64,000 nucleotides of DNA from Squalus acanthias. Taxonomy: Eukaryota. The notes under the pieces were generated by a model. That model saw nothing but the letters and a program-made list of their open reading frames with translations, was not told the DNA's origin and did no database searches. Positions 143 to 39,871 of the stretch are shown here, one piece after another (position 1 is the stretch's first letter; each line of letters opens with the position of its first letter). Both the position numbers and the translations under genes were made by a program. The stretch is taken from contig CM059432.1 in assembly GCA_030390025.1 (NCBI GenBank), positions 8,556,001 to 8,620,000 on the forward strand, given 5' to 3'.

Positions 143-805
143 GGCAGGACAGGTAGATAAGGCGGTTAAAAAGGCATATGGGATACTTGCCTTCATTAGC
201 AGAGGCATAGAATAGAAGAGCAGAGAGGTTATGATGGAGCTGTATAAAACGTTGGTTAGGCCACAGCTGGAATACTGTGTGCAGTTCTGGTCACCACACT
301 ATAGGAAGGATGTGATTGCATTGGAGATGGTGCAGAGGAGATTCACCAGGATGTTACCTGGGCTGGAGCGCTTCAGCTATGAAGAGAGACTGGACAGGCT
401 GGGGTTGTTTTCCTTAGAGCAGAGAAGGCTGAGGGGGGACCTGATTGAGGTGTACAAAATTATGAGGGGCATAGATAGGGTAGATAGAAAGGAACATTTC
501 CCCTTAGTAGAGGGGTCAATAACCAGGGGGCATAGTTTCAAGGTAAGGGGCAGGAGGTTTAGAGGGGATTTGAGGAACAACTTTTTCACCCAGAGGGTGG
601 TTGCAATCTGGAACTCACTGCCTGAAAGGGTGGTAGAGGCAGGAACCCTCACAACATTCAAGAAGCATTTAGATGAGCACTTGAAGCGCCATAGCATAGA
701 AGGCTACGGACCAAGTGTGAAAAATGGGATTAGAATAGACAGGGCTTGATGGCCGGCGCGGACACGATGGGCCGAATGGCCTCTTTCTGTGCTGTATAAC
801 TCTAT
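143..805 (+). mobile_element. 5'-truncated CR1 LINE, (CTCTATGA)n-tail subfamily; tail resumes at 1706 after the MITE
   Basis: ORF 231-749 has the CR1 ORF2 C-terminal motifs [27 protein letters not shown] and FFTQRVV; 3'UTR ends GGGCCGAATGGCCT...CTCTAT. Confidence 0.92.
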
Positions 806-1705
806 GGGGGAAAAAATTCAGTATCGCCCCGTTTGGGGCGCAATTATCGGCCGGGCACAAAGATTAGCGCCTGGCGCTAATTATCGCCTCTGACTGCAAA
901 CTTGACTTTTATCGCCCCTGGAGGTGATTGGAGCGCTAAATCAGGCGCTACACATCTGTCTTAAGGCGCAAAGGCCGAGGAGCGAGGCGCTAACTCAGAG
1001 CACTGGCGAAGCTCATGTGATGTCAGTCAGCAATGGAAAACAGACACAATGGCGCCAGCCAGTTCTTAAAGGGGTGGGTTGATCTTGCTTTCCATTCACA
1101 TCCTGCTCATTGCAGCCTTGAATCTTGGCCTGGAGAGACCTGTACATCAAATCTGCTGGAAAGAACAATGGAGAGGCCCAGGGAAAGAGCTCAGAGTGCA
1201 ACCCCCACAGACTCTTCTAAATCGATACAAGGAAGGGCAAATCAAAATGAACCTGCAAAGTGCTGCTCAGTACCCAAAACTCCTTCACACAGCGTTGAAT
1301 CTCTCCAGAAGTCTCTCTCTCTCTCTCTCTCTCTCAGAATGCGTGGTTCAAAAATGTCACCAACAAAAAAAGGCAGGAAGCGGTCGCCTTTAAATAGTGC
1401 TCCCCCAGTCCCTTCCTGACTGCAAAACGCTCCCCTCAACCTGTCGTTGCTAGCGGCAGGCGGTAAGGCAGGGGACGCCACTCAATATCCACTCCGGGGC
1501 GCTGCCGGGGCGTTGCGCACTCGACTGACGTCACGATCTGCCGGCGCAGGAGATCGTGGCGGTAGTGTTTAGCGCCGCCGCAAAATGTCTCGTTAATTTT
1601 GTGGGCGGCGCAAACATCGCCGCGCCCGGGTGCTAGTTGCTTTGTGCCCCAGTAGCGCCCTGTTAAGGCGCTAACAGGAGGCGCAACCAACTGAATTTTT
1701 CCCCC
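806..1705. mobile_element. Non-autonomous PIF/Harbinger-type MITE, family A
   Basis: TIRs GGGGGAAAAAATTCAGT / ACTGAATTTTTCCCCC, 3-bp TSD TAT, second copy inverted at 38425-39313. Confidence 0.88.
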
Positions 1706-1724
1706 TATGATTCTAATTGTCACT

Positions 1725-1970
1725 AACAGAGTGAGGTAAAAGGTTCGGAGGAATTTATTAGAGCATGCAATGCTTTGCCACATATAATAGTTGAAGCAGA
1801 GAACTTTGCACCTTTTAAGATGAAAGTGGATAAACATTTGAAGTGAAGGAAGATACAGAGGACTGAGCGGGGTAGTGGGATTCGCTGTGAATCGTTCCAG
1901 CAGAGAGCTGGCACAGACATGGTGAGTCAAATGGCCTCCTTCAATGCTGTGAAGTTCTCTGGTTCCATGA
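1725..1970 (+). mobile_element. Old CR1 3' fragment
   Basis: Degenerate CR1 3' end (GAGCTGGCACAGACATGGTGAGTCAAATGGCCTCCT). Confidence 0.6.
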
Positions 1971-2454
1971 CTTAACCTATAAGAAGTGGTCAGATTTCAA
2001 CAGCTATGTAACTGTTTTGCTGGGTATCTGGGAAAGATTTCAGTAAAGCCTTTATCATAAGCAGTACAAGGATTGTTTTGTCTGTACTCTGACTGCGGGA
2101 ATATTCCACATTTCAACAAAGGGAATGACACGGCACAGAGTTGAAGTAAATGTGCAAGAGACCAAACTTGCTTTCTTTTTTTTATTTCTTTCATTATTAT
2201 TTGCTCTCTGGAATGTTTATGTTTGGCATATATTCTGCATTGCCACCACAAATCTCCTGGAGATTCATCATGCGGTGAGGCTGGGAGGACAGTAAAGCGA
2301 ATGATGAAGGCTATACTGTCCAATTACGTCTTCATTAAAAAATAAAGCCGTCTGTCCCTTCAACAGAATCTTTTTAATGAGCAGAGATATCTATAGGAAT
2401 CCCTGGTGGGCCATGAGGTTGAAGGGAAACCAGCTTGAGACTGCAACTCTCACC

Positions 2455-2678
2455 TAACACTTCCACACGCAAAAGGGTGGTAGGTGTTTGGAACTGTCTT
2501 GCGCAAACGGCAGCTGGTGCTAGATCAATTGTTCATTTTACGTCTGAGATGGATAGATCTCTGTTAACCAAAGGCATGAAGAGATATGGGGCAAAGGCGG
2601 TCACAGATCAGCCATGATCTCATCGAATGGCGGCACAGGCTCGAGGGGCTAAATGGCCTCCTCCTCTTCTTATGTTCC
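2455..2678 (+). mobile_element. Old CR1 3' fragment
   Basis: RVVGVWN motif; GATCAGCCATGATCTCATCGAATGGCGG...TTATGTTC tail. Confidence 0.75.
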
Positions 2679-2839
2679 TCTTACTCTAATTCATCTCAAG
2701 CTACCCCTATTGTTTGGTTTTAATAGGCCAGATTAATAAAGTACTAAGCAGTCATCCCGCACAGATATCCTACAGTGCTAATTCCAATATTGTCATAACG
2801 CAGGCAGGGGCTAATAGTACACTGTAGATGGATGATAAT

Positions 2840-3818
2840 GGGCTGAATCTTGCTGGAACAATGACAGCGTGTTAACGACGCATGCCATTGTTAATGTGCA
2901 AATCAGCCAGCAAGTTCAGGGGATGAAGAGATAAGGCGTGATTTGCTAATCTCCAGAACTTGCTGGTTGATTTTCACCACTCCGCTGTTAACTTTGCACA
3001 AACGGCATTTCGTCCTCAGCACTCCCCGTTATTTTTAAGAACTTACGGATTTGCACATTAATTGCCTGTTAAACTCACCGCAGATTTGACTGTAATTCAC
3101 CCTATTTCCTTCTCCATTGTCCCTCTGTTTCTTTCCCAATTCTTAAATTTTGTTGCTTCAGGAGATACACTGTTGGTCCCGTCGTCCACCAATGGGCCCC
3201 AGATGCCCCAGCATCGAAGCTTTGACCACGCTCGATCAGCTCCGATGGACGGGCCACATCATCCGCATGCCCGATACGAGACTCCCAAAACAAGCGCTCT
3301 ACTCGGAGCTCCGACATGGCAAGAGAGCCCCAGGTGGGCAGAGGAAACGCTTCAAGGACACCCTCAAAGCCTCCTTGAAAAAGTGTAACACCCCCACCGA
3401 CACCTGGGAATCCCTGGCCCAAGACCGCACAAAGTGGAGGAGAAGCATCCGGGAAGACGCCGAACACCTCGAGTCTCTTCGCCGGGAGCAAGCGGAAACC
3501 AAGCGCAAACAGCGGACGTCAACACAAGCACCCCACCCACCCACCCTTTCAACCACCGTCTGCCCCACCTGTGACAGAGACTGTAGGTCCCGCATTGGAC
3601 TCATCAGTCACCTGAGAACTCATTTTTAGTGTGGAAGCAAGTCATCCTCGGTTCCGAGGGACTGCCTAAGAAGAAGAAGATGCCCCGATGCCCGTGCCGT
3701 TATCAGCTTGCACTTCCAGCAACTTACACCGTAAAAAATCTTTGAGCTGAAGGATGCAGAAAAATGTCTAACTAACTGGGCGCGCCGCGAGATGCCCCTC
3801 TCCAGCAAGATCTGGCCC
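2840..3818. mobile_element. Harbinger-type MITE, family B, containing an RTE insertion
   Basis: TIRs GGGCTGAATCTTGCTGGA / TCCAGCAAGATCTGGCCC, TSD AAT; related copy at 35573-36306. Confidence 0.8.
3210..3677 (+). mobile_element. 5'-truncated RTE-clade LINE
   Basis: QLRWTGHIIRMPDTRLPKQALYSEL...RKRFKDTLK motif, C-terminal CPTC..SHLRTH finger, (AAG)n tail, TSD AGATGCCCC at 3201-3209 and 3678-3686. Confidence 0.9.
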
Positions 3819-4512
3819 AATGAAGCTCAGCATCAGGGAAACGGATCTCTGAAGTTGCTCATTTAGTGTATTGTATGAGGGAAAAGAACGGAGAGGCATA
3901 ATTTGTGTCCATGCCCTGTTCTAACTCCCGGACAGATGAGCTGAGTCTAATTCTGAAATGCGGATTTGATGATGTTTTCATTTTGCAACATTGAAACGTA
4001 TCGTCTTCTTCGGAAATCCAGAGGCGAATGCTTTTTATCATCGGAACAGCCTACACAGCTGGATTGGACAGAGCAGTGGGTCATCTCTGGATCCCGGGTT
4101 CCAATGTAAGAAAAGCTTTATCTTTCGGGTGAGTGTTTCCTGTCTCTGTTGACTGAACGAGTCCTACGTTAAATGAATTGAAGCAAACTCGACCCAATAG
4201 GCGTGACATAATTACTTATAATTACTCATTTGTATTTCAATGGCTCTTTCACTAAGTGTCCCATTGATAGAGCAGATTGGGTTCTTTTGAGATTTGGGGT
4301 TAAGGCATTCTAACAGGGGGTAAGACACTTCACCAGGTGCCGGTGTTGCTTTCAGGTTCCTGGACTAACACCTTTTTTTTGAACACTAGATGGATCTTTA
4401 AATTGACTTTGCCAAGCATCTGGGTATTTTACTGTGGTTCTCTAATGGCCCGCGCCAATGGCGGAAATATCGGCCCAGAATTTCCTGGCGTCTTGTGCCT
4501 TTGGACTGGCAA

Positions 4513-4648
4513 AAAGAAGAGATTTGCAGGGCTACGGGGAAAGAGCAGGGGGGGGAGCGGGACTCAATGGATGGCTCTTTCAAAGAGCCGGCACAGGCAT
4601 GATGGGCCGAATGGCCTCCTTCTGTGCTCTAATCATTCTACAATCTAC
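4513..4648 (+). mobile_element. CR1 3' tail fragment
   Basis: GCAGGGCTACGGGGAAAGAGCAGG...GATGGGCCGAATGGCCTCCTTCTGTG. Confidence 0.7.
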
Positions 4649-5054
4649 GACGTTGGATTCGTTTTACACCCGTAAAAGTCCCAGGCAGTTATGGCGTGGG
4701 GGAGTTATGCCGTTATTTGCATAATTCCCTGGGACGTTCGCGCCGCTCCATCAATACCCTGAAAAATTAATTATTGTCGCTCTGCCCACCGGTCAAGTCA
4801 ATGGTCATCGCAAGTTTCCTGGATTTATGCCGGTCTTCTCACCGGGGCCGCTCTGACCGAATGGTGCGGGTGAATGTATTTGAATTCATGAGTTCCATAG
4901 GATTGATTAAAGTAAAATAAAATCACTGATATTTTTAATTCATAGCTAAAACCCATCCAAACACTACTTCTTCATCATTGTGTGTTATGTTTAATGTGCT
5001 TTGTGTGTGCATGGTGTGGGGCAGAAGTGCCTACAGATGCCATTGATAAAGGTG

Positions 5055-5252
5055 AGAAGTCGCACAACACCAGGTTATAGTCCAACAGCTTTATTTGAAA
5101 TCACAAGCTTTCGGAGCGCTGCTCCTTCGTCAGGTGACGAAGGAGCAGCGCTCCGAAAGCTTGTGATTTCAAATAAAGCTGTTGGACTATAACCTGGTGT
5201 TGTGCGACTTCTTACATTTGTCCACCCCAGTCCAACACTGGCATCTCCACAT
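5055..5252. mobile_element. Penelope-like family 2 fold-back terminal-repeat insertion
   Basis: Perfect 78-bp inverted arms (5055-5132 / 5135-5212), 40-nt tail, TSD CATTGATAAAGGTG; the same repeat follows GIY-YIG remnants at 37238 and 45147. Confidence 0.85.
5101..5137 (-). ncRNA. Minimal type I hammerhead ribozyme motif (PLE family 2)
   Basis: TCAC-CTGACGA-A-GGAGC agc GCTCC-GAAA-GC-TT-GTGA. Confidence 0.7.
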
Positions 5253-5300
5253 CATTGATAAAGGTGAGAGTGAGGGGGAAAATTTGTTCAGGCCTGTTTT

Positions 5301-5980: not shown

Positions 5981-5982
5981 CA

Positions 5983-12881: not shown

Positions 12882-13210
12882 CATAGATTTATAGAATCAT
12901 AGAATAGTACAGCATAGCAGGAGGCCATTCTGCCCATCGAGTCTGTGCCGGCTCTTTCGAAGAGCAATCCAATTAGTCCCACTCTTTCCCCATATCCCTG
13001 CAATTTTTTCTCCTTCAAGAATTTATCCAATTCCCTTTTGAAGGCAGCTATTGAATCTGTCTCCACCACCCTATCAGGCAGCGCATTCCAGATCCTAACC
13101 ACTCGTTGCGTAAAAACGTTTTTCCTCATGTCGCCTCTGGCTCCTTTGCCAATCACCTGAAATCTGTGCCCTCTGGTTACCGACCCTTCAGCCACTGGAA
13201 ACAGTTTCCC
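12882..13210 (-). mobile_element. CR1 3' fragment
   Basis: TRGH, FTQRVVRIWNALP motifs and tail. Confidence 0.85.
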
Positions 13211-13589: not shown

Positions 13590-14022
13590 CGGTGGCATAG
13601 TGGTTAGCACTGGTGCTTCACAGCGCCAGGGACCCGGGTTCGAATCTGACCTCGGGTGACTGTCTGTGTGGAGTTTGCACATTCTCCCCGTGTCTGCGTG
13701 GGTTTCCTCCGGGTGCTCCGGTTTCCTCCCACAGTCCAAAAATGTGCGGGTTAGGTTGATTTGGCTATGATAAATTGACCCTTAGTGTTAGGGGGGGATT
13801 AAATATGTGGGGTTATGGGGATAGGATAGGATGGGATATGTTAGGGGGAATTAAATACGTGGGGTTACGGGGGTAGGGTGGGATATGTGTACTGTGGGGA
13901 TTAAAGCAGTGGACAGGGTACTGGATTTGGATGATCAGCCATGATCGTATTGAATGGTGGAGCAGGCTCGATGGGCCGAATGGCCTACTCCTGCTCCTAG
14001 ATTCTATGTTTCTATGTTTCTA
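13590..14022 (+). mobile_element. HE1-like V-SINE with a CR1-derived 3' tail
   Basis: A box TGGCATAGTGG, B box GGTTCGAATC, V core TGTGTGGAGTTTGCACATTCTCCCCGTGTCTGCGTGGGTTTCCTCCGGGTGCTCCGGTTTCCTCCCAC, (TTTCTATG)n tail, TSD CTATTC. Confidence 0.88.
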
Positions 14023-18218: not shown

Positions 18219-19146
18219 AGCATCCTGAGAATGAACAACTTTACCCATTTCATTATTTCTAGCTACAGTACAAATCCACAAGCCATTAATAAGTAAAAAG
18301 AAAGCAAAAACCTCAATCATATGAGATTAAACCAAATCATAATCCTCCGCCTATATTTATATACGACTAGAGTATCTTACACCTGGTTCAGGCATGGGCA
18401 CGGCACATCGATGTTTTTGGTCTTTAACAATATGGCAGGTGGCGTACATCTGTTCGCAGTGAGCGTGCGCCTCCCGCCCGCCATATTGGAGGCTTAGGAG
18501 GCCGTTTAGTGCCAGAAAAACTAAGGTCTGCCGTTGCACATTTGTCCACGATACGACGAGCTTTCCCCGGCTTTCTTCAGTGCGGGTCTTGTGTGGGCCA
18601 AACTGCGGAAGGAATTGGCTCCATTCTATACGCTAATTACAAGTAGTCTCCAGCTCCAAGTACAATTCAGAGCATTGCTTTGATGGTCCCAGCCACTTTG
18701 CTTTCCCACGTTGTGCCTTTTTTTTTCTTTCCTGGCATCCGTCCAATTGGAAGGCAGCATCGCGCTCTGCGAATGTGCTGTGAGCGCTATGTTCTGGAGA
18801 GTCCCTGGAGCTGAACCAAGATTCGACAGAAGTTCTTTGTCGGGTTATGCAGGACAATGGTGCTGGGTTATTGATCCTTCTCTATGATCCACACTGGTGA
18901 GTGTATTGTCCAGTGTGCAAACTATCCAGCTTCTTCTTTACTCAAATGATATTTATTGGCATGCAACTTATGCAAGCATGTGGCCCGGAGTCACAAAAAA
19001 TTACAGTGAAAACCTTGTTTACTACTTGAAGTCTGGACCTGCAAAACAAATCCAGTTCATTCAAAACACAGTGAGCAAGATTCAACCCAAAAAATGTCTC
19101 CATAAATTTAATATTCCCTCCTAAATACGTTAGTCATAGAGTCATA

Positions 19147-19989
19147 GGGCAGAATTTTCATTGACCCGTGGAGGCGGGTTTGGAGGCGTGGGGGGGTTAA
19201 AGTTGCAGATTCGGGGGTCCCGAACCCATCCCGCCCCCAACCCGCCTCCATGCCAGTTTCACAGGAGGCGGGTACCCGACCTATGCTGGGACCTGCCTCC
19301 CCGAGGCAGGAAGGGGATTAGTGCCAATAAACTGCCTGTTAACAGATAGTTAACAGGAAGTTTTTTGCCTAATCCCTATTTTTAGCCCTGAAGTGTGGGC
19401 TTCCCGACAGGTCCGAACCATGCCGTTTTAGCGAGGCGGACCGTGGGTCTGGAGGGGTTGGAGGGGTCGATATGTCCGGTGGGCAGGTGAATGATGGGTG
19501 CATGTGTGCAGAGGTAAGTGTGTAAGGTAAGTGTAAAGTGTGGGAAGAAGTTTTACTTACCTTAACTTCCTCCTGCAGGTGTCAGCTCTTCAGGTCTCGG
19601 GAGTCAGAAATCTCACCGGCACAGAAAGCAGAATGGCCGTTGAGCTGTCAAAAGCTGCAGCCGCTGCTTTTTGTTCTGCAGAGATCTCTAAATCAGCCTG
19701 AGAGGCAGGAATTAACTTAGAGGACAGATTGTCAATGTTTGACAGCTTCACAGAGCTGTCAAACGCTGATATTTCATCTGTCAAAAGCTCTTGACAGATG
19801 AAATGTCAATCTGTGACGTCACGTGTTGCCGGGTGGCCCTTAATTGGCCTGCTGAGCCCACTGGGCGGGCTCAACAAGGTCAATTGAGGGAAAATCGAGT
19901 GGGTTGGCCACAAGTCGATGGAGGCGGGACTACAACCCAAAAAGTGGGAGTCCTGCCTCCATCACGTCCCCATTGACAAAATCCAGCCC
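19147..19989. mobile_element. Harbinger-type MITE, family C
   Basis: Ends GGGCAGAATTTT / AAAATCCAGCCC, TSD ATA, interrupts a CR1 tail. Confidence 0.8.
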
Positions 19990-21835
19990 ATAGAGTTCTA
20001 CAGTACAGAAAGAGGCCCTTCGGCCCATCGAGTCTGCGCCGGCCATCAAGCCCTGTCTATTCTAATCCCATTTTCCAGCACTTGGTCCGTAGCCTTGTAT
20101 GCTATGGCGCTTCAAGTGCTCATCTAAATGCTTCTTGAATGTTGTGAGGGTTCTTGCCTCTACCACCCTTTCAGGCAGTGAGTTCCAGATTCCAATCACC
20201 CTCTGGGTGAAAAAGGTTTTCTTCAAATCCCCTCTACACCTCCTGCCCCTTAACTTGAAACTATGCCCCCTGGTTATTGACCCCTCTACTAAGGTGAAAA
20301 GTTCCTTTCTATCTACCCTATCTATGCCCCTCATAATTTTGTACACCTCAATCAGGTCCCCCCTCAGCCTTCTCTGCTCTAAGGAAAACAACCCCAGCCT
20401 GTCCAGTCTCTCTTCATAGCTGAAGCGCTCCAGCCCAGGTAACATCCTGGTGAATCTCCTCTGCACCCTCTCCAATGCAATCACATCCGTCCTATAGTGT
20501 GGCGACCAGAACTGCACACAGTATTCCAGCTGTGGCCTAACTAGCGTTTTGTACAGCTCCATCATAACCTCCCTGCTCTTCTATTCTATGCCTCAGCTAA
20601 TGAAGGCAAGTATCCCATATGCCTTTTTAACCACCTTATCTACCTGTCCTGCTGCCTTCAGAGATCTATGTACATGCACACCAAGGTCCCTCTGATCCTC
20701 TGTCCTTCCTAGAGTCCTACCATTCATTGTGTATTCCCTTGCCTTGTTAGTCCTCCCAAAATGCATCACCTCACATTTTTCAGGGTTAAATTCCATTTGC
20801 CACTGTTCTGCCCATCTGACCAACCCGTCTATATCGTCCTGTAGCCTGAGACTTCCCTCCTCGCTATTTACCACTCCACCAATTTTTGTGTCATCTGCGA
20901 ACTTACTGATCATACCTCCTACATTCATATCTAAATCATTAATGTACACTACAAACAGCAAACGACCCAGCACCGATCCCTGCGGTACACCACTTCCAGT
21001 CACAAAAACAACCTTCGACCATCACCCTCTGCCTCCTGCCACTAAGCCAATTTTGGATCCAATGTGCCAAATTGCCCTGGATCCCATGGGCTCTTACTTT
21101 CTTGACCAGTCTCCCATGCGGGAATTTGTCAAAAGCCTTACTGAAGTCCGTGTGGACTACATCAACTACACTACCCTCATGCACACACCTCGTCACCCCC
21201 TCGAAAAATTCAATCAAATTGGTTAGACATGATCTCCCCCTGACAAAGCCATGCTGACTATCCTTAATAATCCTTGCCTCTCCAAGTGGAGACTAATTCT
21301 GTCCCTCAGAATTTTTTCCAATAATTTCCCTACCACTGATGTTAGGCTCACTGGCCTGTAATTCCCTGGTTTATCCCTACTACCCTTCTTGAATAATGGT
21401 ACTACGTTAGCTGTCCTCCAGTCCTCTGGCACCTCCCCTGTGGCCAGAGAGGTTTTGAAAATTTGTGTCAGAGCCCCTGCAATCTCCTCCCTTGCCTCAC
21501 ACAGCAGCCTGGGATACATCTCATCTGGGCCTGGGGATTTATCCACTTTTAAGCCCGCTAAAACCGCTAGTACCTCCTCCCTCTCAATACTAATTTGTTC
21601 AATTATATCACAATCACCCTGCCTGATTTCTATGCCTGCATCGTCCTTCTCCATAGTGAACACAGATGCAAAATATTCATTTAAAACCTCACCCACATCT
21701 TCCGGCTCGACACACAGATTGCCACTTTGATCCCTAATGGGCCCTAACCTTTCCCTAGTTATCCTCTTGCCCTTAATATACTTATAAAACACCTTGGGAT
21801 TTTCCTTTATTTTGCCCGCCAGTGTTTTTTCATGT
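19990..21835 (-). mobile_element. 5'-truncated CR1 LINE, (CTCTATGA)n-tail subfamily
   Basis: Frameshifted RT ORFs 21223-21852, 20939-21217, 20593-21003 (FADD) and 20062-20565; tail continues at 19132-19146. Confidence 0.93.
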
Positions 21836-21988: not shown

Positions 21989-22968
21989 CAGCGTGCAGTT
22001 AAAATAAACCAGGTGCCTTTCTCGCCCATGTCCTGTCTGGCTCCCGCCACCTTCGATTTCAACCGGCTCTTGTGAGCAAGCGATGGAAGGGGACCCACCC
22101 CGGAGCCAGCGGGGTCCTCTTTAAATATGCAGATCAGGTCCAATGACATCATCGGGCCACGAGCACCATTGTAACTCCAACCGGAGCGGGGAGACCACTG
22201 CGGCTTCGGCACCGGCTGAACTCTTCAGCACAAGAGGCCATTCAAGGTAAGCATTATTTACTGATCTTTGTCGGGCCAGGAGGAGTAGGAGGTGCCGCAA
22301 GGAAAGTTTAGGCCTCCCCTGCCCAGGACTGCACCCCCCCTCCCCCTCCCCCCCCACCGCCTCCCACACTGCCCAACTTCTGTGCTGTAACCATCCTACG
22401 ATTCTAATATCCTGCTCACCTTTTCTTAACTTCCTGTCCACTTCCTGCCCAGTTTCTTCCACTTCCCGCACGCTTTGTTCCCATTTCCTGCCTAGATCAG
22501 GCGGGAAGTCGACTGGCGACACGTTAATGAGGCCCGGTGGGTCAAATTGCTTCAGGCAGGCGGTAATCTAACGGGACCCAGAGGAGCGCCGGGCTGCCAG
22601 ATCACGGCACGGACCCCGCGCTCAAAGAGGCAACGGGCCGCGACAAGTAAGTTGGACAATTCTTTTTTTTCCTGCCCGCCACCTGCCCTTTGGTTAGCGC
22701 CCCGCGAGCCTCCTGCCGCTCCGTTCCCGGGTCCTGTGAATCGGCCGCTGCCATCGCCTGCCGCAGATTCAGGGGCCGCGGGTCAATTTTGCAGGCGGGG
22801 CGAAAACGGGGCGCCGCGCACGGTGACGATGTCGTCACCACCTGTGCAGCGGAGCGGGGCGCTACCGGTTACTGCTGCCGCTAGACTCCCGGGCGAAAAG
22901 TCGTTTGTGCCCCATTAGCGCCCCCGGGGGCGCAAACGAGAGGTGCAAACGCACTGAATTTCTAGCCC
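21989..22968. mobile_element. Harbinger-type MITE remnant(s), right end only
   Basis: Ends ACTGAATTTCTAGCCC with subterminal sequence similar to families A and F; no left TIR found. Confidence 0.6.
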
Positions 22969-23296: not shown

Positions 23297-25004
23297 TGTA
23301 ATGTTTCCAAAATTTAAAACCGAAGGAAAAAGGACTTTGGAACTACCTCAGAGTGATAAAAATTGCATTTGGGCCTAACATAAGGAATTTAAGACCAAAA
23401 ACCAAGTTTTGGCATTTTAAAAACATGTCTGGGCCTGTAAAGGGAGAAAAGGCTGTGAAGGAAGTTGGGTTCGACCTCTGTAAAAGCAGTTTGGGTATTG
23501 CAGTTAATTGCAATGTCTGGGGAACCGGGATGATCTCACTCAAAGCCCCAGCACGCATTAATATTTTGACAATAGACCCTAGGAGAAGACAGTCCCACCC
23601 AAAATAATAGGTCCCATCAACCCGATTACAGGGCCCATCAAGAAACATGAATAATACAGAGCACCCAGGACTAGGCTATAGATCAGTCTAGGAACCCAAA
23701 ACACAAAACCAATCACCAGCAATCAGCCAAGAAGATCGACAGGATGCAAACCATCCCAAAAACCCATTTGACACTTACAGAGCAGATACTGGTAGCAGGC
23801 CCGCCAAATTCAGACAATGAACTGAACAGATTTGGTGGGTAGGTAAGGCCATATTCAATGGGTCAGATTGAAGGCCTGTTAAAACCCAGTTAACGTGCTA
23901 GTAAATCATTACCGATTTACGAGCCCGCCAAAACTGGACAATGAACTGAACAGATTTGGCGGGTAGATAAGGCCACTTCAATTCTGCATAATTGAAGGCC
24001 CTCCAAGCACACACCAAGCAGGAAGAGCTAGCTAGAAGAGAGAGAAACAACACAGTCCAGCGTTCGTTGGGTCGAGCAGTCAGTCGCAACCGGTGGTCAT
24101 CAGAAGGAGGAGAGACCAAGAAGAAGAAGGCCCGAGCTGGAAGCGAGTCGGCATCGCTCACCACTCAGACACACCTGAGTCCAGCTCGTGAAGATACCAC
24201 CTCGACGGACCTCCAACAACGACCCCAACACAGTCACCCGGAGCAACAAGCAGCAACAAGTCACCGACAGCTCCACGAGGTCGACCGACACACCAACCAA
24301 GGCCTAAAGCCATCGCGGAAACCAAAGGCCTCACGAAACCAACAACCGCGCATTACCCCCAACTGACCGGGTAATGGCAGGCCACCGTGACCAACAAAGA
24401 CCAACTCCAGGGAAGAAAACCCGAAGAATCGCAAAGTTTCCACACTACAAACTACTCCTGACTTACCCCTGGGTAAGATTTTCCCCAAAGACTCTAAGCC
24501 CTGCTACTCAACTAAAGAAATTGGGTACTCACCAGATAAATCCATAACGACATCCTACCGCATCAGCGGACTCGCGAAGACTGACCAGAGACCCAGGTGA
24601 AGTCCTCTACCGCGTACGGGGTACGGCAGACAACAACCGCCATAAACAGTGAACCCCAAAACCGCGATTTAGCCCAACTGTCAAAGGATTGGTGAGCATT
24701 ATCCCTGGTCCTTCAAAACCTAACTTAGCTAGTAAAGTGGGGTTGGGAGGGGTGAAGTATTGTTCTACTGTCATTTCCCTCGCTTGTACCGAAGTGTTCC
24801 CCACCTTTAAAGTGATAAGAGTGTTATTATTTGTGTCTTACCTTTTAATAAAGATTGAAGTTCTTTCATCAAACTCAGTTGTCTGCTGCACCTTTTGTAT
24901 CACAACCCCCAAATAAGTCCAAGGTCTAGAACCAAGGGTGTGGGAGCGATTCGAACCGCTCAGAAGTCAGAGGTAAAGCTGACACAAAAACACCATCCCC
25001 TGCA
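23297..25004 (+). mobile_element. Solo LTR (1.7 kb) inserted 20 bp inside the Harbinger left end
   Basis: TGTA...TGCA termini, flanks CCT(T)/CCTT, AATAAA at 24847; both ends homologous to 45707-47005. Confidence 0.85.
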
Positions 25005-25435
25005 CCTTCAGCCCACGTCCGGCGCGGCCTGCGCTGAACGCCATCTTGGTGAGGGCAGGAGCACGGGCGGTACGTGCGTGCACCGGCATCATGCAGAGTA
25101 GGCAAATTGTGAAGCCAGTCAGCGTGTGATGCTGATTTGATGCACGACCTGCAATTTTCAACCTCACCGCTCCAATTAACCACCTCTCCTAAACATGCAC
25201 AGTTGGACGTGCGTTCAGCTGCACGAGGGACCCCCCACCAGCGCTACTTAAAGGGACACATCCAACTTGCAGGTTAGTTGCTTATTGCCACGAACTGGCT
25301 CTTGTAGATTTTGTAGGAGTGCTGGGTTGCTGGAAGAGATTTTAAAAGTTGTGAAAGCGTGCAGGGAGTGCGGCTGGACGTTGGGAAGGTTTTGGCTGCT
25401 CCTGGAATCTCTGACTACACCACTTGCTCCCAGTC

Positions 25436-26530
25436 ATGGGTGCTCTGGTTGCAGTCCCCCTCATGCTGCAACATGACAGGGAGATGGAGCAGAGGCAGCA
25501 AAGAAGACACGCTGCTCACAGAGGGAAGAGGAGGGGGTGGAGGAGGGCTCTCAGCAGGAGGCCTTACCCACCTGGGGTCTTCAGGGGGCACTTCTTCTAC
25601 CTGCACCTGAGCCAGGAGCAGTGTATTCGGTGGCTCCACTTCACCAAGGAGGTGGTCACAGAACTCTGCCACCTCTTGGAACCAGACCTGCAGCCTCAGA
25701 GCAGGGCGACGACGGCCCTGCCAGTGGCCCTCAAGGTGACCGTGGCCCTGAATTTCTTCACCAGCGGATCCTTCTAGGTTGGAACAGGCGACATAGCAAA
25801 TATCTTTCAGTTCGCCATCCATCGCTGCATCCGAGAGGTCAGAGAGGATCTGTACGCTAGGAGAGGGGACTTCATTGTCTTCTCTCTGGAGCGTGCTCGT
25901 GGCTTTGCCAGGATAGCGGGCTTCCCCATGGTGCAGGGCGCCATCGACTGCACACACGTGGCTTTGCGGGCGCCGCATCTCAATGGTGAGATGTTCCGTA
26001 ACGCAAAGGGTACCACTCACTTAATGTGCAGTTGGTGTGCGACCACGCCCAGCACATCTTGCTGGTGAATGCCTGCTATCCTGGCAGCAGTCATGATGCG
26101 TTCATCCTGTGGCAGTTCGCTGTGCCAGCACTCTTCCAGCCACCACGTCGAATCCGAGGGTGCCTGCTCGGCAACAAGGGCTATCCGCTCTGCACCTGGC
26201 TGATGAATCCCCTCCGCAACCCCACCACTGGTGGCCAGCACTCATATAATGGGAGCCATGCAGCCACGAGGAGCTTCATCGAGCAGATTGTCGGGCTGCT
26301 GAAGCAACGGTTCCGCTGCCTTGACCACTCGGGAGGAGCCCTCCAGTACTCGCCGGAGCGCGTGTCCCAATTCATGGTGGTCTGCCGCACAACTTGGCCA
26401 TCATGAGGGCGCAGCCCTTGCCACCACGGATTCCACAACCACCTCAGGAGGAGGAGGAGGAGGAGGAAGAGGAGGAAGGGAGGAGGCAGCCGGCACATCC
26501 ATGTTCTGGACGGACTGTCTGTCAGCGCAA
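25436..26530 (+). pseudogene. Harbinger DDE transposase (HARBI1-like) pseudogene
   Basis: ALNFFTSGSF*, GFPMVQGAIDCTH, KGYHSLNVQLVCD, YPGSSHDAFIL, LLGNKGYP (catalytic D to N), IEQIVGLLKQRFRCL; stop at 25775, frameshift near 26002; 5'UTR intron 25273-25433. Confidence 0.9.
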
Positions 26531-26721
26531 CATCAGATTCCAGTTCCCGTAAATGAAACCCCAGATCCCCGTTGCTCAACACTTCCCCACCTTACCATCC
26601 CTCTGTCACGGACCATTACAGCGTCCTCTTGGCCACAATGCTGAAATGAAAGCCACCACAAAATAAACATTTCAAACCAAATTTATAAATCAATCAATCC
26701 AATATTACATAACAAAGTCAA

Positions 26722-29651
26722 ATAATCACCCTTGTGCATTCCCTTAGTGCCTGTCTTGCGTGTGCCTTTGCCTGTCCTAGTGCTCCTACGCAGTGCTACC
26801 CCAGTGGCTGCAGCATGGCTGGTGGAAGGCTGCTGACTTTCAGTGGAGGACACTGCAGATGACCTTACCAGGATGACCTCGAGCAGCTGTAGGCCTAGTA
26901 GGCCTGGCTGCGGACTGCACCACCTTGGCACGGGGGGCAGCAGTCTGGGCTGGCTGGCCAACAGGCAACAGCAAGGGCACTGGCGGAGTGGCAGTGGGGG
27001 AAGGACGAATGCTGTCATCCTGAGAGAGGACACCAGGTTGGCCCTCCACGGATCCACTGCCACTCCCCCTGGGGCAGCGCCTCAGCAATCCTATTAATCT
27101 GTTGGAGGACAGAATGCTGGACTGCTCTGACACCCTGCAGGGCCCTTTCAACACTGGTAAACACAGCCACGATGGCAACAGTCTGAGCTTGCGTGGCAGC
27201 ACTCAGACGTTGGGTCGCTTCCGCTTGTGCTGCAATGGAAGCTGAGACATCGGCCATCAGACGCTGCATCATGGTTGGGTCCACAAGTTGCCCATGACTT
27301 CCATCCTGGAAATTATAAGCTCCAAGCTCTGCGCAAAGCCATGTGCAGAGTTTTTTTTTAATTCATTCATGGGATGTGGGCGTCGCTGGCAAGGCCAGCA
27401 TTTATTGCCCATCCCTAGTTGCCCTCGAGAAGGTGGTGGTGAGCCGCCTTCTTGGATCACAGCAGTCCGTGTGGTGCCGGACTCCTCCATGCACTTTGAC
27501 AGTGACAACAGGTTCTCTGGCAGGTCTACCATTGCACCAAGTATTTCTGTGTGCATGCTCATCAGCCTTCTTCTGTAGGCCGCCCCATCGAAGTCCTCAC
27601 CTGATTCCTTTGCAGCAGAACTCGTGTGTGACCTCACCCTCCGGGGAGCTTGCACCTGTGCTGACCTTTCCCCCTGTCCTGGCTGCAGCCCACTCATGTC
27701 CGGTGACTCACCAAGCACAGATCCCACCTCTAAGCTACCCTCTAAAGTACGCACAGTGCCAGTATCTGAGCTGATGCCTGCGAGTGTCAGATCGAGTGAC
27801 AGTGTCTCTTCTTCTCCATCACTCTGCTCTTCCTGCACTGGCTCACCAGGTTGGAGCTCTTGGGTATCTGAAAGGAGAAAGGCCCAAGGGTCGGGTTGTG
27901 GTGCGGGGAGTGGGGGAAAGCAAGATGTGCGTGCTTACACCATCAGCAGCTAGCAAGTGAGAAGAGATTGTGGGATGAGGGGGAAGTGGGATGTGAGAAG
28001 GAGGATTAGGTATGAGGATACCGGCATCTTCAATGGTTTCAGCCTCAACACACGCCACAGCCTCAGTGACGGCCTCTCCAATAATGTCGAGTACCGTCTC
28101 CTCCAACTGGGTAAGGATATCGAGGCTAGCCCATCCCCCGCCGGTTAGCTACTGCTGCCTGCGGTTATGAGCCACTTTGCCCTGCAAGAGAGAGGGAAGT
28201 GTGTCAGTGAGTGTGGTGCAATGTGTTTGGGTGATATGTGTGTCAGTGAGTGTGGTGCAATGTGTTTGGGTGATGTGTGTGTCAGTGAGTGTGGTGCAAT
28301 GTGTTTGGGTGATGTGTGTGTCAGTGAGTGTGGTGCAATGTGTTTGGGTGAAGTGTGTCAGTGAGTATAGTGCAATGTGTTTGGGTGAAGTGTGTCAGTG
28401 AGTGTGGTGCAATGTGTTTGAGTGAAGTGTGTCAGTGAGTGTGGTGCAATGTGTTTGGGTGATGTGTGTCAGTGAGTGTGGTGCAATGTGTTTGGGTGAA
28501 GTATGTCAGTGAGTGTGGTGCAATGTGTTTGGGTGAAGTGTGTCAGTGAGTGTGGTGCAATGTGTTTGGGTGATGTGTGTCAGTGAGTGTGGCGTAATGT
28601 GTTTGGGTGATGTGTGTCAGTGAGTGTGGTGCAATGTGTTTGGGTGAAGTGTGTCAGTGAGTGTGGTGCAATGTGTTTGGGTGAAGTGTGTCAGTGAGTG
28701 TGGTGCAATGTGTTTGGGTGATGTGTGTCAGTGAGTGTAGCGCAATGTGTTTGGGTGAAGTGTGTCAGTGAGTGTGGTGCAATGTGTTTGGGTGAAGTGT
28801 GTCAGTGAGTGCGGTGCAATGTGTTTGGGTGAAGTGTGTCAGTGAGTGTGGTGCAATGTGTTTGGGTGATGTGTGTGTCAGTGAGTGTGGTGCAATGTGT
28901 TTGGGTGAAGTGTGTGTCAGTGAGTGTGGTGCAATGTGTTTGGGTGATGTGTGTGTCAGTGAGTGTGGTGCAATGTGTTTGGGTGATGTGTGTGTCAGTG
29001 AGTGTGGAGCAATGTGTTTGGGTGATGTGTGTGTCAGTGAGTGTGGTGCAATGTGTTTGGGTGATGTGTGTGTCAGTGAGTGTGGCGCAATGTGTTTGGG
29101 TGATGTGTGTGTCAGTGAGTGTGGTGCAATGTGTTTGGGTGATGTGTGTGTCAGTGAGTGTGGCGCAATATATTTGGGTGATGTGCCTGTCATGGTTGAA
29201 TAGCTGGCAGTGTGTGCAAGCTGTGAGATATGGGTGTGAGGCTTGCAGTAGTGGCAGGTGAGTAAGGGTGAGGTGAACCTATGAGTGTGAGGTATGAGTC
29301 GTGATTGATAGAGATTGTTGGTCGGTGAGTGAAGGAGTATGATGCATTGAGCAGTGTGTGAGGTTAGTGGTGCAGTTGGTGGGATGTGGCATTTGAAGAA
29401 ACATTCACTGACCTTGACCACTCGTGTGAGTCATTGAACTTCTTTCAGCACTGCATCCATGTCCTCGGGGCAACACTGCTGGCATTGACCGTGTCGGCTA
29501 TCTGCTCCCACTGCCTTTCGCAGTGTGTGTCCGAGGGCCTCCTGGCCCCCTGCGGATAGAGGACCTGTCTCCTCCGTTCTACCCGCTGCACCAAGGCCTC
29601 TAGTGATGTGTCCGAGAACCTTGGAGTCCTTCCTCTGGCCTGTTGAGCCAT
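26722..29651 (-). pseudogene. Harbinger Myb/SANT-like DNA-binding protein pseudogene, three exons (about 29651-29413, 28182-28022, 27867-26722)
   Basis: PRFSDTSLEALV...WEQIADTVN...RTWMQC*KKFND trihelix motif; exon 2 KVAHNRRQQ*LTGGG; GT-AG boundaries; LINE-B tail inserted at about 27350-27465. Confidence 0.8.
28198..29186. repeat. Minisatellite, about 26 units of 37/39 bp
   Basis: (GT)GTGTGTCAGTGAGTGTGGTGCAATGTGTTTGGGTGA(T/A) in tandem. Confidence 0.97.
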
Positions 29652-29969
29652 TTTTCACTCTTCTTCTTTCTGACCCTTGCCTCCACAACCAGTTCCAGCA
29701 GCTGTTGCAGGCAGAATGCACCTCCCCTTTAAGAGGTGCAGACTGCCTTTAAGAAGTGGAGGCTAGCTTTAATTGGAGCCAGCCTCAGCCACTCAGCAGC
29801 GCATTCAGCCCTGGGCGGAACACTGCAATCATTGTAATTAACAGGCAGCATGAAGGTCGTGTGCTGCCTGCATTCCGTTCAACGGGCGTGGGCCGATTGT
29901 GCATCGTGGTCCCACAGGACTGTTTTCGTGTCCAATCCAATTTTTAGCCCAATATTCAAACAAAATAGG

Positions 29970-30625: not shown

Positions 30626-31304
30626 GAGGGAAAAATTGAGTTGATTTGCGCCTCTCGTTAGCGCCCCCTAACAGGGGGCCGCTAACGGGGCGCATTTCCC
30701 CTAGCTCCCGGGCGCGGCGCTGCTAATGCCTCCCGCGAAATTCAGCGGTAACGTCATCGCCGTGTGTAGTGCCCTGGCCGCAAACTTCCCTTGCGCCCCC
30801 TGACCTATCGCTGGACGATATGTCCGACAGGGTCAGGGGGGGCCGTTGTTGCAGCCGCGGCGGCGCTACTTAAAGGGCAGGTGTCGGGTGACCATTTTTA
30901 TTTTGGCCGACTGCCAGCACCTGCCCCCTTCCCCCTTTTATCTTCAGGGTGCCGGCCGTGATCGCTCAGCCCGGCCGGCGCTCCTCTTGAGTGCCGGGCT
31001 GTTTTCCCAGCACCCCGCTCCCCGGTCGTCCAGCAGGGCCCCGGTGCGCACAGCGCTAGGCCCCTCCCCTTTACTCAGGGGAGGGAGGGCTGCAATGACA
31101 TGGCGCTACATGCCGACGCACGTGGCGCTGTTGCACGTAGCGCCGTGATATTCAGTTGTAGCGACCCAGGAAGGAAGGGGAGCGCTTCCAGTAGTGCCCC
31201 GCCTCCTGCTGGGGCGCTACCACTGAATTTCAGGCGGAGGGGCGCTAAAAGTAGCGCCCTGGCGACATCAGCGGCCCAAAAGGGCAACACCAAATTTTTC
31301 CCCC
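30626..31304. mobile_element. Harbinger-type MITE, family D
   Basis: Ends GAGGGAAAAATT / AATTTTTCCCCC, canonical TSD TAA. Confidence 0.82.
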
Positions 31305-32515: not shown

Positions 32516-32527
32516 ATTTTTTTTCTT

Positions 32528-34790: not shown

Positions 34791-35523
34791 GGCCCGGATT
34801 TTACGGGGCTCTATGACCGCGTACGCACAGAGTGCGTGGTCGTAAGTGCCCCCCCCCCAAAGTTTCGAGTTTCCACATGCGACGCACATGCGCGAAAACT
34901 CGGAACTGGCGATCTGTCCAGATTCCAGCTTGGACAGATCGTACGAATACACAGGAAATGGACAATCACGGGCGGAGGGTTGGGCTATTTGCCCCAACTG
35001 CTGCCCAGCGAATGCCCACGAAACCCTTACGCCTGGTAAAAGCAGGTGTAGGACCTTCTTTTACCAGCGTAAGGGTTTAAATAATTATTAAAATACATTT
35101 TTTTTAAATGATTTAACCAGACAAAAGCCTTTAAAATTAGTTCAGGTTAATTTTGGCCCCTTGAAAAATGTTTAATTTTTTTGTTTTAAATGTTTAGTTA
35201 AATTGTCTTTTAATTAATTTTGACCATTCTTTCAGTGTTGTGATAGTGTGTTTTTTCGGGGATTCCTATTCATGCTCGTGGGGATTCGGTACGGAAATGG
35301 AATCCCCCATAAGCATAATGGGAACCCCCCTTTGTGATTGGTTGGCCTGGCCCACGTGGTCCCAGGGATGCTCATGAACCGCCTGCCCCCCTGGGATACG
35401 TGGGCCTTTATGCAGGCCTACACCTGCAGGCACGAAGGTACGGAGCAATCAGGTAGGTGCGGAGTTTACTTGCAGTTCGGAGGCATCCGCCCGCGGGAAG
35501 CTTCCGACCGCAATTTCCAGCCC
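34791..35523. mobile_element. Harbinger-type MITE, family E
   Basis: Ends GGCCCGGATTTTACGG / CCGCAATTTCCAGCCC; GC-rich arms and AT-rich centre; TSD not conserved. Confidence 0.6.
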
Positions 35524-35572
35524 ATTACAACGAAACAAAAAAAAAAAAATTGCTGGCAATGTTCAGGAGATA

Positions 35573-36306
35573 GGGCCAGATCTTGCTGGATCGGGGAATT
35601 TTGCGGCGTGCCCCATTCGTTAGACTTTTTCCCTCACCCTTCAGCGTGACAAAATTTTGCCCTGTACGTTGCTGGAAGGGCGAACTGATAACGGCGCAGC
35701 GGGGGCAGCGCTGCATCTGGGGCCTTGGTGAACGACGGGACCAACCAATGAGATTTAAGGATTGAGAAAGGACAACGGAAAAGGAAATAGGGTGAATTAG
35801 AGCCAAATGAGGTCCAGAAAGAGAAATAGAGGGAAAGAAAGATTGGATTAAGAGAGAGAGAAAAGAGACAGAAAGGAACGTAAGAAAATTAAAAAATGTT
35901 TAACACCTTTAAAATCTCTAACAACAATTTACTACCTGTAGGAATGAGATAGGAATGAGACAGTTTAAATTGTTCCCTTTCTGGGCTGGAGAGGTTGAGT
36001 GGCATTGCAGAAACATAAATCTCCTCATTATAAGGTACTTACGTCGTTAAGTAGAAGCCCGAACTTGCTGTGCTGAGTTTAATGATTAATTAACGCGCGA
36101 CTGCAGCAATATCGTGAAACTCATGGAGAGGTTGAGGGCGAGCTGCCGTTTCCGCAAGGCTGACGGCGGAGCGGCGCAAATCATCCGGCAGCTGGTGGCG
36201 ATTCGCAACTCACCGAGTATCTCTTCCTCGCCACAAGTCGCTGGGCAATTTACACAGGGTGAGCGCCATTAAGCTCGCTGTTATTTTTGGCAGCAGAATC
36301 TGGGCC
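35573..36306. mobile_element. Harbinger-type MITE, family B relative
   Basis: Starts GGGCCAGATCTTGCTGGA; internal match to the reverse complement of 3090-3210; flanks ATA/ATT. Confidence 0.72.
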
Positions 36307-36540: not shown

Positions 36541-37065
36541 GAACATAGGAGCAGGAGGAGGCCATTCAGCCCCTCGAGCCTGTTCCGCCATTCAATGAGA
36601 TCATGGCTGATCTGTATCCTAACTCCATTTATCCGCCTTGGCTCCACATCCTTGAATACCCCTGGCCAGCAAAAATCTCAGATTTAACATTATTAATCGA
36701 GCTAACATCTACTGTTGTATTTGGGAGAGAGTTCCGCCCTTCTACCACCCTCTGTGTGAAGAAGTGTTTCCTAACTTCTCTCCTGAATGGGCCTGGCTCT
36801 GATTTTAAGGTTGTGTCCCCTTGTCCTAGACTACCCCACCAGCAGAAAAGAAAGTTTCTCTCCATCTACACTTTCAAAATCCGAAAAACCTCAATCAAAT
36901 CACCTCTTAACCTTCTACATTCCAGCAAATAAAAGCCTAGTTGATGTAATTTCTCACAATTTCACCCTTGGAGCCCCGGTTCCCGGAAGGGCACACAGTT
37001 CTCCAGATGTGATCTAACCAGGGCTTTGTATAGCTGGAGCTAAACCTCCTCCTTTGTATATTCCA
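36541..37065 (-). mobile_element. CR1 3' fragment
   Basis: FRREVRKHFFTQRVV and tail. Confidence 0.75.
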
Positions 37066-37116
37066 ACCCTTTCAAACTGCTATAACCCCTGAAATTGAAT
37101 GTGTACGGTAGCAGAA

Positions 37117-38424
37117 GGATCAGAGGGACCTTGGTGTGCATGTACATAGATCCCTGAAGGCAGCAGGACAGGTAGATAAGGTGGTTAAAAAGGCATATGG
37201 GATACTTGCCTTCATTAGCCAAGGCATAGAATAGAAGTTGAGAGGTCGCACAACACCAGGTTATAGTCCAACAGTTTTATTTGAAATCACAAGCTTTCGG
37301 AGCTATCGATTGCTCCTTCCTCAGGTGAAGTAAATTAGATACAGAATCGCCAAAGCATATATAGATAGAGAACAAAGCATGTGTACCTTACAATTGCAGA
37401 CCACTAAATTAAATCATCCTGACTATCTGCCGAGGTGTGATAAAGTTAATCAAGTCAGCCAGGAAGGTACCACATCAAAGACATAGCAAGATACAACTGA
37501 GACAATGAGGTGTAGTCGCAGGGGTTCTAACGTGTCAAAAGCTGCCGTCTGTATGGAAAACGAAAAGCTTTAAAATTTTTAATTTTTTACTGGGAAAATT
37601 TTTACTTTTTTACTGGGAATCACATCTGTGAACAAGCCAACGACGACTCGAGTCCGGATCACGTCATGTATCGTGACATAAACCCAAGCTCCCGGTTGAG
37701 ACCGTCTTCATGAGTGCGGAACTTGGCTATCAGTTTCTGCTCGATGATTTTGCGTTGTCGTGTGTTTCTAAGGTGCGACCTCTCAATTTTGTCCACCCCA
37801 GTCCAACACCGGCATCTCCGCATCATAGAATAGAAGAGCAGGGAGGTTATGATGGAGCTGTACAAAATGCTAGTTAGGCCACAGCTGGAATACTGTGTGC
37901 AGTTCTGGTCGCCACACTATAGGAAGGATGTGATTGCATTGGAGAGGGTGCAGAGGAGATTCACCAGGATGTTACCTGGGCTGGAGCGCTTCAGCTATGA
38001 AGAGAGACTGGACAGGCTGGGGTTGTTTTCTTTAGAGCAGAGAAGGCTGAGGGGGGGACCTGATTGAGGTGTACAAAATTATGAGGGGCATAGATAGGGT
38101 AGATAGAAAGGAACTTTTCCCCTTAGTAGAGGGGTCAATAACCAGGAGGCATAGTTTCAAGGTAAGGGGCAGGAGGTTTAAAGGGGATTTGGGAAAAACT
38201 TTTTCACCCAGAGGGTGGTTGGAATCTGGAACTCACTGCCTGAAAGGGTGGTAGAGGCAGGAACCCTCGCAACATTCAGGAAGCATTTAGATGAGCACGT
38301 GAAACGCCATAGCATACAAGGCTACGGACCAAGTGCTGGAAAATGGGATTGGAATAGACAGGGCTTGATGGCCAGCGCAGACACGATGGGCCGAAGGGCC
38401 TCTTTCTGTGCTGTATAACTCTAT
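37117..38424 (+). mobile_element. 5'-truncated CR1, (CTCTATGA)n-tail subfamily, split by a PLE; tail resumes at 39314
   Basis: Near-identical to 143-805. Confidence 0.92.
37238..37823. mobile_element. PLE family 2 insertion: inverted body (GIY-YIG C-terminus, UTR, hammerhead 37287-37328) plus a forward 3' tail
   Basis: EQKLIAKFRTHEDGLNRE on minus; TSD CATAGAATAGAAG. Confidence 0.85.
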
Positions 38425-39313
38425 GAGCGAAAAATTCAGTTGGTTGCGCCTCCCGTTAGCGCCTTAAGAGGGCGCTAATGGGGCGCAAAGCAACTGGCGC
38501 CCGGGCGCGGCGATCTTTGTGCCGCTCACGAAATTAACTGGACATTTTGCGGCGGCGCTAAACACTACCGCCACGATCTCCTGTGCCGGCCGATCGTGAC
38601 GTCAGTCGAGAGTGCAATGCCCCGGTAGCGCCCCGGACCGGATATTGAGTGGTGCCCCCTGTCTTACCGCCTGCCGTTAGCAACGACAGGTTGAGGGGAG
38701 CGTTTTGCAGTCGGGAAGGGACTGGGGGAGCGCTATTTAAAGGCGACCGCTTCCTGCCTTTTTTTGTCGGCGAAATTTTTGCACCACGCATTCTGAGAGA
38801 GAGAGAGACTGCAGGAGATATTCAAAGCTGTGTTGAGGAGTTTCGGGTACTGAGCAGCGCTTTGCAGGTTCTTTTTGATTTGCCCTTCCTTGCATCGATT
38901 TAGAAGAGAATATGGAGGCTGCAGTCTGAGCTCTTTCCCTGGGCCTCTTCATTGTTCTTTCCAACAGATTTGATGTACAGGTCTCTCTAGGCCGAGATTC
39001 AAGGCTGCAACGAGCAGGGTGTGGATGTAGAGCAAGATCAACCCTCCTCTTTAAGAACAGGCCGGCGCCAGTGTGTCTGTGTTCCATTGCTGACTGACAT
39101 CACATGAGCTTCGCCAGCGCTCTGAGGTAGCGCCTCGCTCCTCGGCCTTTGCGCCTTAAGGCAGATGTGTAGCGCCTGATTTAGCGCTCCAATCACCTCC
39201 ATGGGTGATAAAAATCAAGTTTGCAGTCGGAGGCGATAATTAGCGCCAGGCGCTAAACTTTGCGCACGGCCGATAATGGCGCCCCAACCGGGGCGACACT
39301 GAATTTTTCCCCC
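38425..39313. mobile_element. Harbinger-type MITE, family A (inverted relative to 806-1705)
   Basis: Full-length reverse-complement homology, TSD TAT. Confidence 0.88.
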
Positions 39314-39871
39314 TATGACTCTATGAGAAATGGAATGAATGCTTCTGAACACAGTAATTAAGTGACTAATCAAGCACCAACAGCAATTAATGCCTCCTTA
39401 ATGCCAGTGAAACTCCACTCTGACTCTGGTGGCAAGATGGTAAAAGACTTATCGAAGAGCGGAGAATTTAAACCACAGATGTAAATAAGTAATATCAAAC
39501 ACGGCTGTCGGAGTAGTTGGTTGGCTGACCAAAAGGTGAAAACAATTAAATTAAAGAAACAGGTTTAACTTCATTCCCTCCTGCTGTCATGCAGCATGTT
39601 TCATCTTCGACCTCACAGAACTGCTGAATGCAAACGGTTATCGCTTTTTGTCCGCTATAAGCCGCTGCCTGTTTTAAATGCGGGTGTTTTAAGTGGTGGG
39701 TACTGCATGAGCATGCTATGTTATTGTCTACAGTAGCTGTATCTGTGCGGGCAAACATCTTTTTTTGATTCCTGCGAATATTTGGTCGCCTAAGTGTCGT
39801 GATGAGTAATACAGTTTCAATATCCTTCGTTTATTGCCCACCTTCAAAGGAAATTGCCTGCATCTTGGTTG

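Follow-up and report, generated by a model that had tools for sequence, protein, structure and literature searches.

Probable Harbinger-type elements at the first TAT of a retrotransposon tail in a 64,000-nucleotide stretch of Squalus acanthias DNA

PIF/Harbinger DNA transposons make 3-base-pair (bp) target-site duplications (TSDs) and, according to the accessible part of PMC2836001, have target preferences that extend over 9 bp (plants) or 15 bp (vertebrates). A preference for TAA in plants is given in the accessible part of PMC5738225, and the target of the zebrafish element Harbinger3_DR is given as AAACACCWGGTCTTT in that of PMC3016246. Here we analyse a stretch of contig CM059432.1 of Squalus acanthias (assembly GCA_030390025.1, positions 8,556,001 to 8,620,000, forward strand), which at its full 64,000 nucleotides is called the window. 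In it, three elements with terminal inverted repeats (TIRs), most likely non-autonomous members of PIF/Harbinger (Tourist-like MITEs, or miniature inverted-repeat transposable elements), lie at the same position in the tails of three copies of one long interspersed nuclear element (LINE) subfamily. We take this LINE to be CR1. It is likely, in our judgement, that the tail of a high-copy LINE happens to match a known extended PIF/Harbinger target preference and that the insertions were independent.

The closest described systems share parts of this arrangement. Harbinger3_DR and Harbinger3N_DR of zebrafish (Sinzelle et al. 2008, as cited in PMC3016246 and PMC2836001) likewise have a 3-bp TSD and an extended, near-palindromic target, with half-sites, AAACAC and AAAGAC, that recur in the consensus of the flanks of the present MITEs, and they have a transposase gene with a Myb-like partner gene, both present in the window in decayed form. 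They differ in the target centre, which is CWG there and TAT, ATA, TAA or AAT here, and the accessible text reports no pile-up in LINE tails. The Tourist-like MITEs of PIF/Pong (mPing, maize PIF) are also non-autonomous, carry TIRs, duplicate a 3-bp A/T target site and have a preference that reaches past the duplication; in the accessible part of PMC2836001 this is the 9-bp plant preference, whereas the present elements are 840-900 bp long and lie in an animal genome. Dada and Pokey (PMC3706591, accessible part) are DNA transposons found repeatedly at one position of a multicopy sequence, and Pokey, like the present MITEs, inserts elsewhere too. Dada is strictly target-specific and has 6-7-bp TSDs; both target host RNA genes, whereas the target here is a retrotransposon tail common to several families that also have many insertions elsewhere. 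We found no published report of Harbinger MITEs accumulating in a CR1 tail, in a search that was short on subscription journals and had Repbase outside its scope. The mechanism is already known, and the pairing of a Harbinger hot spot with a LINE tail is unreported within the literature searched.

The three filled tails comprise the following features.

143 to 805, plus strand: CR1-type LINE copy 1, 3' end, 5'-truncated, ending in the first tail TAT (left TSD at 803-805)
806 to 1705, plus strand: MITE family A, copy A1, 900 bp, non-coding, with G-rich TIRs and an open reading frame (ORF) of 110 or more amino acids without Pfam match
1706 to 1715, plus strand: right TSD (TAT) and remainder of tail 1
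19990 to 21835, minus strand: CR1-type LINE copy 2, ending in the first TAT, with a partial, broken reverse-transcriptase ORF (RVT_1, E 1.6e-11)
19147 to 19989, minus strand: MITE family B, 843 bp, with GGGC-type TIRs, without BLAST similarity to A
19132 to 19146, minus strand: right TSD (TAT) and remainder of tail 2, its second TAT empty (target score 6/12)
37116 to 38424, plus strand: CR1-type LINE copy 3, interrupted by another insertion at about 37238-37823
38425 to 39313, plus strand: MITE family A, copy A3, 889 bp, facing the other way from A1 with respect to the CR1
39314 to 39326, plus strand: right TSD (TAT) and remainder of tail 3, its second TAT empty (target score 4/12)

In all three tails of this subfamily in the window, a TIR element thus occupies the first TAT, with TAT duplicated. 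TAT stands on both flanks of A1, B and A3, the imperfect TIRs (about 12-16 bp) start with G, and tail sequence resumes for 10-15 letters beyond each MITE. An earlier sequence-only reading had described these three junctions, the opposite orientations of two family A elements and the different interior of the third, and all of this is borne out: A1 and A3 share 90.5% identity across 895 columns and lie in opposite orientation relative to their host CR1, and B gives no BLAST match to A. The 5' ends of the three host LINE copies differ. Non-CpG divergence is 3.0-3.5% among the three LINE 3' parts and 6.8% between A1 and A3. Features of CR1-clade LINEs are present, namely RVT_1 (in copy 2), truncated 5' ends, an 8-bp tail unit and a 3' stem-loop, which is predicted directly before the tail of copy 3 (z -2.3). 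Short, strongly palindromic elements with common ends were observed at 37238-37823, 5045-5222 and 55287-55672, the first of which splits LINE copy 3.

We assigned the MITEs with the help of three elements outside the tails, used as controls, and of a decayed two-gene Harbinger in the window.

30626 to 31304, plus strand: A-related MITE outside tails, TSD TAA, with a left flank (ACTC) like that of the tail
2840 to 3818, plus strand: element with GGGC-type TIRs outside tails, TSD AAT
52517 to 53242, plus strand: A-related MITE outside tails, flanks AAT and TAT (one mismatch)
26002 to 26406, plus strand: DDE_Tnp_4 transposase piece of the decayed Harbinger (E 9.9e-21)
29448 to 29654, minus strand: Myb/SANT-like piece (PF13873) of the same element (E 2.9e-9)

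The duplications are 3 bp long (TAT/TAT at 3/3 tail sites, TAA and AAT at two controls, AAT/TAT at the third). A 5-bp TSD, which the C and G beside TAT would permit at the tail sites, was set aside; the element at 2840-3818 fits 3 bp only. The ORFs of 110 or more amino acids in A1 and A3 have no Pfam match, and B has no ORF of that length. The decayed Harbinger has one clear TIR, ending at 29950, with a GGG-n-AAATT pattern in common with the MITE ends. Mean column identity between this end and the MITE TIRs is 59%, and neither A nor B gives a BLAST match to the element. Its left end and TSD were looked for and not found, and the transposase piece has no match among solved structures. The usual length of Harbinger TIRs is 25-50 bp in the accessible part of PMC9179366. 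Given the 3-bp TSDs, the short G-rich TIRs, the lack of Pfam-detectable coding sequence and the decayed Harbinger in the window, A and B are most likely non-autonomous PIF/Harbinger elements.

Several observations concern these elements and their surroundings. The decayed Harbinger spans about 25400-29950, with the transposase on the plus strand and the Myb-like gene on the minus strand, tail to tail; a 37-bp tandem array (28199-29185) lies within the Myb-like gene region, and the right end of the element lies about 14 bp beyond another LINE/SINE (short interspersed nuclear element) tail. Left of the transposase, at about 23400-24960, there appears by eye to be an insertion of the long-terminal-repeat type. 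More Harbinger-like ends without a matching TSD are seen at 34791-35523, 35573-35662, 22968 and 60026 and are probably older or rearranged MITEs. The control element at 2840-3818 contains a LINE-like fragment (about 3150-3680, by eye), and its two ORFs have no Pfam match.

Chance insertion into a short motif does not account for the three tails. We removed the three tail elements and one control in silico and computed the probability that three insertions fall at exactly the three first-TAT sites. It is 7.5e-6 among 94 C-TAT-G sites, 2e-4 among 32 ANNY-TAT-RNNT sites and 0.0045 among 12 ANNC-TAT-GNNT sites, values that overstate the surprise because the pattern was chosen post hoc. Short-motif chance is insufficient; the pattern calls for either a preference of greater length or a genuine hot spot. 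The flank ANNY-[TSD]-RNNT occurs at 4/6 two-ended MITE sites, including 3/3 tails, and also at an empty tail at 12935 and at the empty second TAT of tail 2. A CT at +5/+6, seen at 6/6 window sites, was set aside as a further motif, as the larger flank consensus has T there.

A longer preference was gauged, post hoc, by scoring 12 flanking positions against the zebrafish Harbinger3_DR target. The occupied tail sites score 7, 8 and 8; by comparison, 44/1603 TAT/ATA sites in the window reach 7 and 4/1603 reach 8. The empty second TATs score 4 and 6, and empty C-TAW-G sites in other tails 4-7. The left arm of the first tail unit comes from the fixed 3' untranslated region (3'UTR), which accounts both for the use of the first TAT and for the use of this subfamily.

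Motif matches to LINE/SINE-type 3' ends number 23 in the window, three of which are the filled tails. By inspection, the remaining 20/23 carry no TIR-TSD element at the tail TAT, and a TIR-TSD scan near them gave as sole match a weak TAC-flanked candidate at 4649-4964 (5/18 mismatches). This candidate probably belongs to a case of reverse nesting, in which LINE/SINE 3' fragments with their tails apparently lie within GC-rich MITE-like sequence (about 4470-4970, and again at about 22370-22410). The sequence-only reading had held that CR1 tails with other repeat units are free of MITEs; this stands for all 20 other ends, but the empty tail at 12935 (minus strand) has a core, TC-TAT-GA, nearly identical to that of the filled tails. 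Collections of metagenome, viral and prokaryote sequences gave 0 matches to the tail pattern, as expected of an animal repeat. A stop-free frame of 941 codons at 47051-49876 (plus strand), with endonuclease and reverse-transcriptase domains, is a near-intact LINE ORF2 of another subfamily.

We aligned Logan contigs from 4 of 24 runs to 38150-39650 at 85% likeness. The runs are X1 and X5 (two samples of organism A), X19 (organism H) and X22 (organism J), and the results on loose ends and joints below are among the 24 loose ends listed (with 3113 more) and the 15 joints listed (with 143 more). Empty tails, in which the LINE is followed to 38426 and then by tail repeat and diverse sequence, are found in at least 325 (X1), 176 (X5), 454 (X19) and 944 (X22) contigs, counts that may take in sister subfamilies, or tails with an element in one of the later units. 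Among the rows listed, MITE ends in diverse non-CR1 flanks account for 458 and 432 contigs in X22, 307 in X19 and 150 in X5, with none for X1; three of these four groups represent a sister subfamily of A. The flank consensus beside the TIR, given as majority letters with agreement of 0.45-0.71, is AAACAC-ATA (458, X22), AAAAAC-TAT (432, X22), AAAAAC-TAA (307, X19) and AAAGAC-TAG (150, X5). AAACAC and AAAGAC (reverse complement) are the two half-sites of the Harbinger3_DR target. An extended preference is seen in these MITEs, with C adjoining the TSD and Harbinger3_DR-like arms, in 150-458 contigs per group. Hot spot and empty sites coexist: the hot spot is not exclusive, since empty tails and MITE ends in unrelated flanks are both common.

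Filled tails recur in all four runs. Depth in the bin 39323-39373 is 1984, 1071, 1758 and 80 (X1, X5, X19, X22), and at position 39351 it is 5, 0, 26.5 and 0; since the latter is single-copy depth or none, the excess in the bin comes from contigs spanning the MITE end and at least 10 tail letters. This gives, crudely, about 1010-5050 MITE-end-plus-tail junctions in X1, 475-1950 in X5, 333-849 in X19 and 45-237 in X22, and guessed occupancies, for one end of one family, of 0.23, 0.12, 0.06 and 0.003; these figures are orders of magnitude only, since depth summed over contigs does not equal copy number. Depth at the left junction (38426) is 4-17% of that at 38351 and 6-38% of the median depth of the LINE body, and was rejected as an occupancy figure for the same reason and because short target overlaps can align. 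At the LINE 3' end (38380-38426), X19 and X22 contigs jump back 44-47 letters, with few letters between, so that the last ~45 bp of the LINE (stem-loop and first tail unit) are tandemly duplicated in some copies in organisms H and J, possibly as a small satellite; no such duplication is seen for organism A among the joints listed.

One X19 contig, at single-copy depth, bears on the order of events at tail 3. It matches 39313-39554 with 13 differences, and the 10 letters at its start fail to align with the end of the MITE. From an empty tail one expects an exact match from 39313 onwards and agreement at only 4/10 letters before it. The flank difference, 5.4% over 242 letters (a small sample), is somewhat high against the 3.0-3.5% between LINE copies. 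Tail 3 thus probably lacks the MITE at the orthologous site in organism H, and A3 would have entered a pre-existing tail. With the differences in orientation, family and host 5' truncation, this agrees with the sequence-only reading that the insertions were independent.

We propose the following course of events. The CR1-type subfamily would have spread with every copy ending in an identical junction of 3'UTR and tail; the junction is seen in the window, and its abundance is suggested by contig depth. A Harbinger transposase, presumably supplied by autonomous two-gene elements, would act in trans and read a near-palindromic target of about 15 bp, with a 3-bp A/T centre, C and G beside it, and A-rich and T-rich outer arms. 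The first tail unit, with its left arm from the fixed 3'UTR, would be a good match (8/12), and to judge from the scores the second unit and the tails of other subfamilies would match less well. Several MITE families, in both orientations, would then accumulate in the first tail unit while inserting elsewhere too: as the target is copied with every LINE, it becomes a very common good target into which several families pile. On this view the hot spot most likely reflects a coincidental sequence match that copy number has multiplied, and the retrotransposon itself is not recognised. The tail as such was called a landing pad in the sequence-only reading, a view that is not supported given the MITE ends in non-CR1 flanks, the empty tails and the good general Harbinger match of the first TAT. 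"Self-renewing" applies in no more than a simple sense: with every new LINE copy there is one further matching site.

Several points weigh against a chance match amplified by copy number. Occupancy is only partly predicted by the published motif: scores at the three non-tail MITE sites are only 6, 5 and 5, 17 TAT/ATA/TAA/TTA sites in the window that score 8-9 are empty, and so is a site scoring 7 in the tail at 13973. The score is post hoc, and the zebrafish motif has the centre CWG where TAT or TAA stands here. The outer As of the flank consensus are weak, because the background is A/T-rich and only majority letters are given. None of the 15 joints listed skips the MITE at tail 3, and the occupancy in organism A (0.12-0.23) may exceed what the motif alone gives. 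A further reading, which we consider rather unlikely, is that in this lineage the LINE tail has become the dominant sink for Harbinger MITEs and may have co-evolved with them, through adapted target arms or through filled tails that still retrotranspose via RNA. If it were so, filled tails could stop LINE priming, one transposon class curbing another; by crude guess, tens of percent of tails would be filled in organism A and <1% in J. True targeting, in which the Harbinger lineages would be adjusted to this LINE tail beyond the general motif (by an adapted arm, by the DNA structure of the stem-loop or by selection for harmless sites), would explain why all three tails in the window are filled while sites of equal score are empty, and why each run holds, on the crude counts, tens to thousands of junctions. 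We regard it as unlikely: diverse flanks contain hundreds of MITE ends, 3/6 two-ended window MITEs lie outside tails, and two MITE families share the one site. The first two of these observations also contradict a strict, Dada-like target specificity.

Alternatively, a few source LINEs may have carried a MITE in the tail, and LINE-MITE-tail units may have been copied by reverse transcription, so that numerous junctions would trace back to a small number of insertions. Terminal repeats do persist 3' of each MITE, and X1 junction contigs at 38426 reach a depth of 122,611 over 93 contigs, a figure that fits many insertions equally. The three window cases require three separate insertions regardless, organism H probably has tail 3 without the MITE, and each MITE parts the predicted stem-loop from the terminal repeats by about 850-900 nucleotides. 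Such separation should hinder priming if the LINE behaves like eel UnaL2. Composite retrotransposition is quite improbable, though it could contribute to the junction counts. Far less probable still is a single composite that was multiplied (by gene conversion or segmental duplication), or else a cluster that arose by chance and was singled out post hoc. There are only three cases, the pattern was selected for 3/3, and at 20-30% occupancy three filled tails out of three have a probability of 0.008-0.027; against this stand the differing families, orientations, 5' ends and downstream flanks and the junctions in 4/4 runs, and for these three loci orientation and family already contradict it. That the LINEs inserted against the ends of pre-existing MITEs might be read from the divergence of A1 and A3 (6.8% at non-CpG positions), which is greater than that of their hosts (3.0-3.5%). 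How far two copies of a DNA transposon diverge depends on the lineages they came from and can be greater than insertion age implies. We reject this order of events, to which we give hardly any credence, because each MITE is flanked by tail sequence on either side, with 10-15 letters on the far side.

Apart from these elements, the window ends in a tandem array (63152-64000) with a unit of 38-44 bp and a variable GA run, which extends past the window end.

The insertions described here indicate that a known target preference can make an abundant repeat an insertion sink, where many insertions occur independently at a single homologous base. Sites of this kind may mislead repeat annotation, by suggesting false composite families, and presence/absence markers, through parallel insertions. 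The junctions form a large natural data set for the target code of vertebrate Harbingers, and their sequences suggest that the outer target arms are common with zebrafish and that the central triplet is different. The accessible part of PMC9179366 states that no Harbingers were found in elephant shark and calls for other cartilaginous fish to be checked; as a window of shark origin, the present stretch would add Harbingers to the cartilaginous-fish record.

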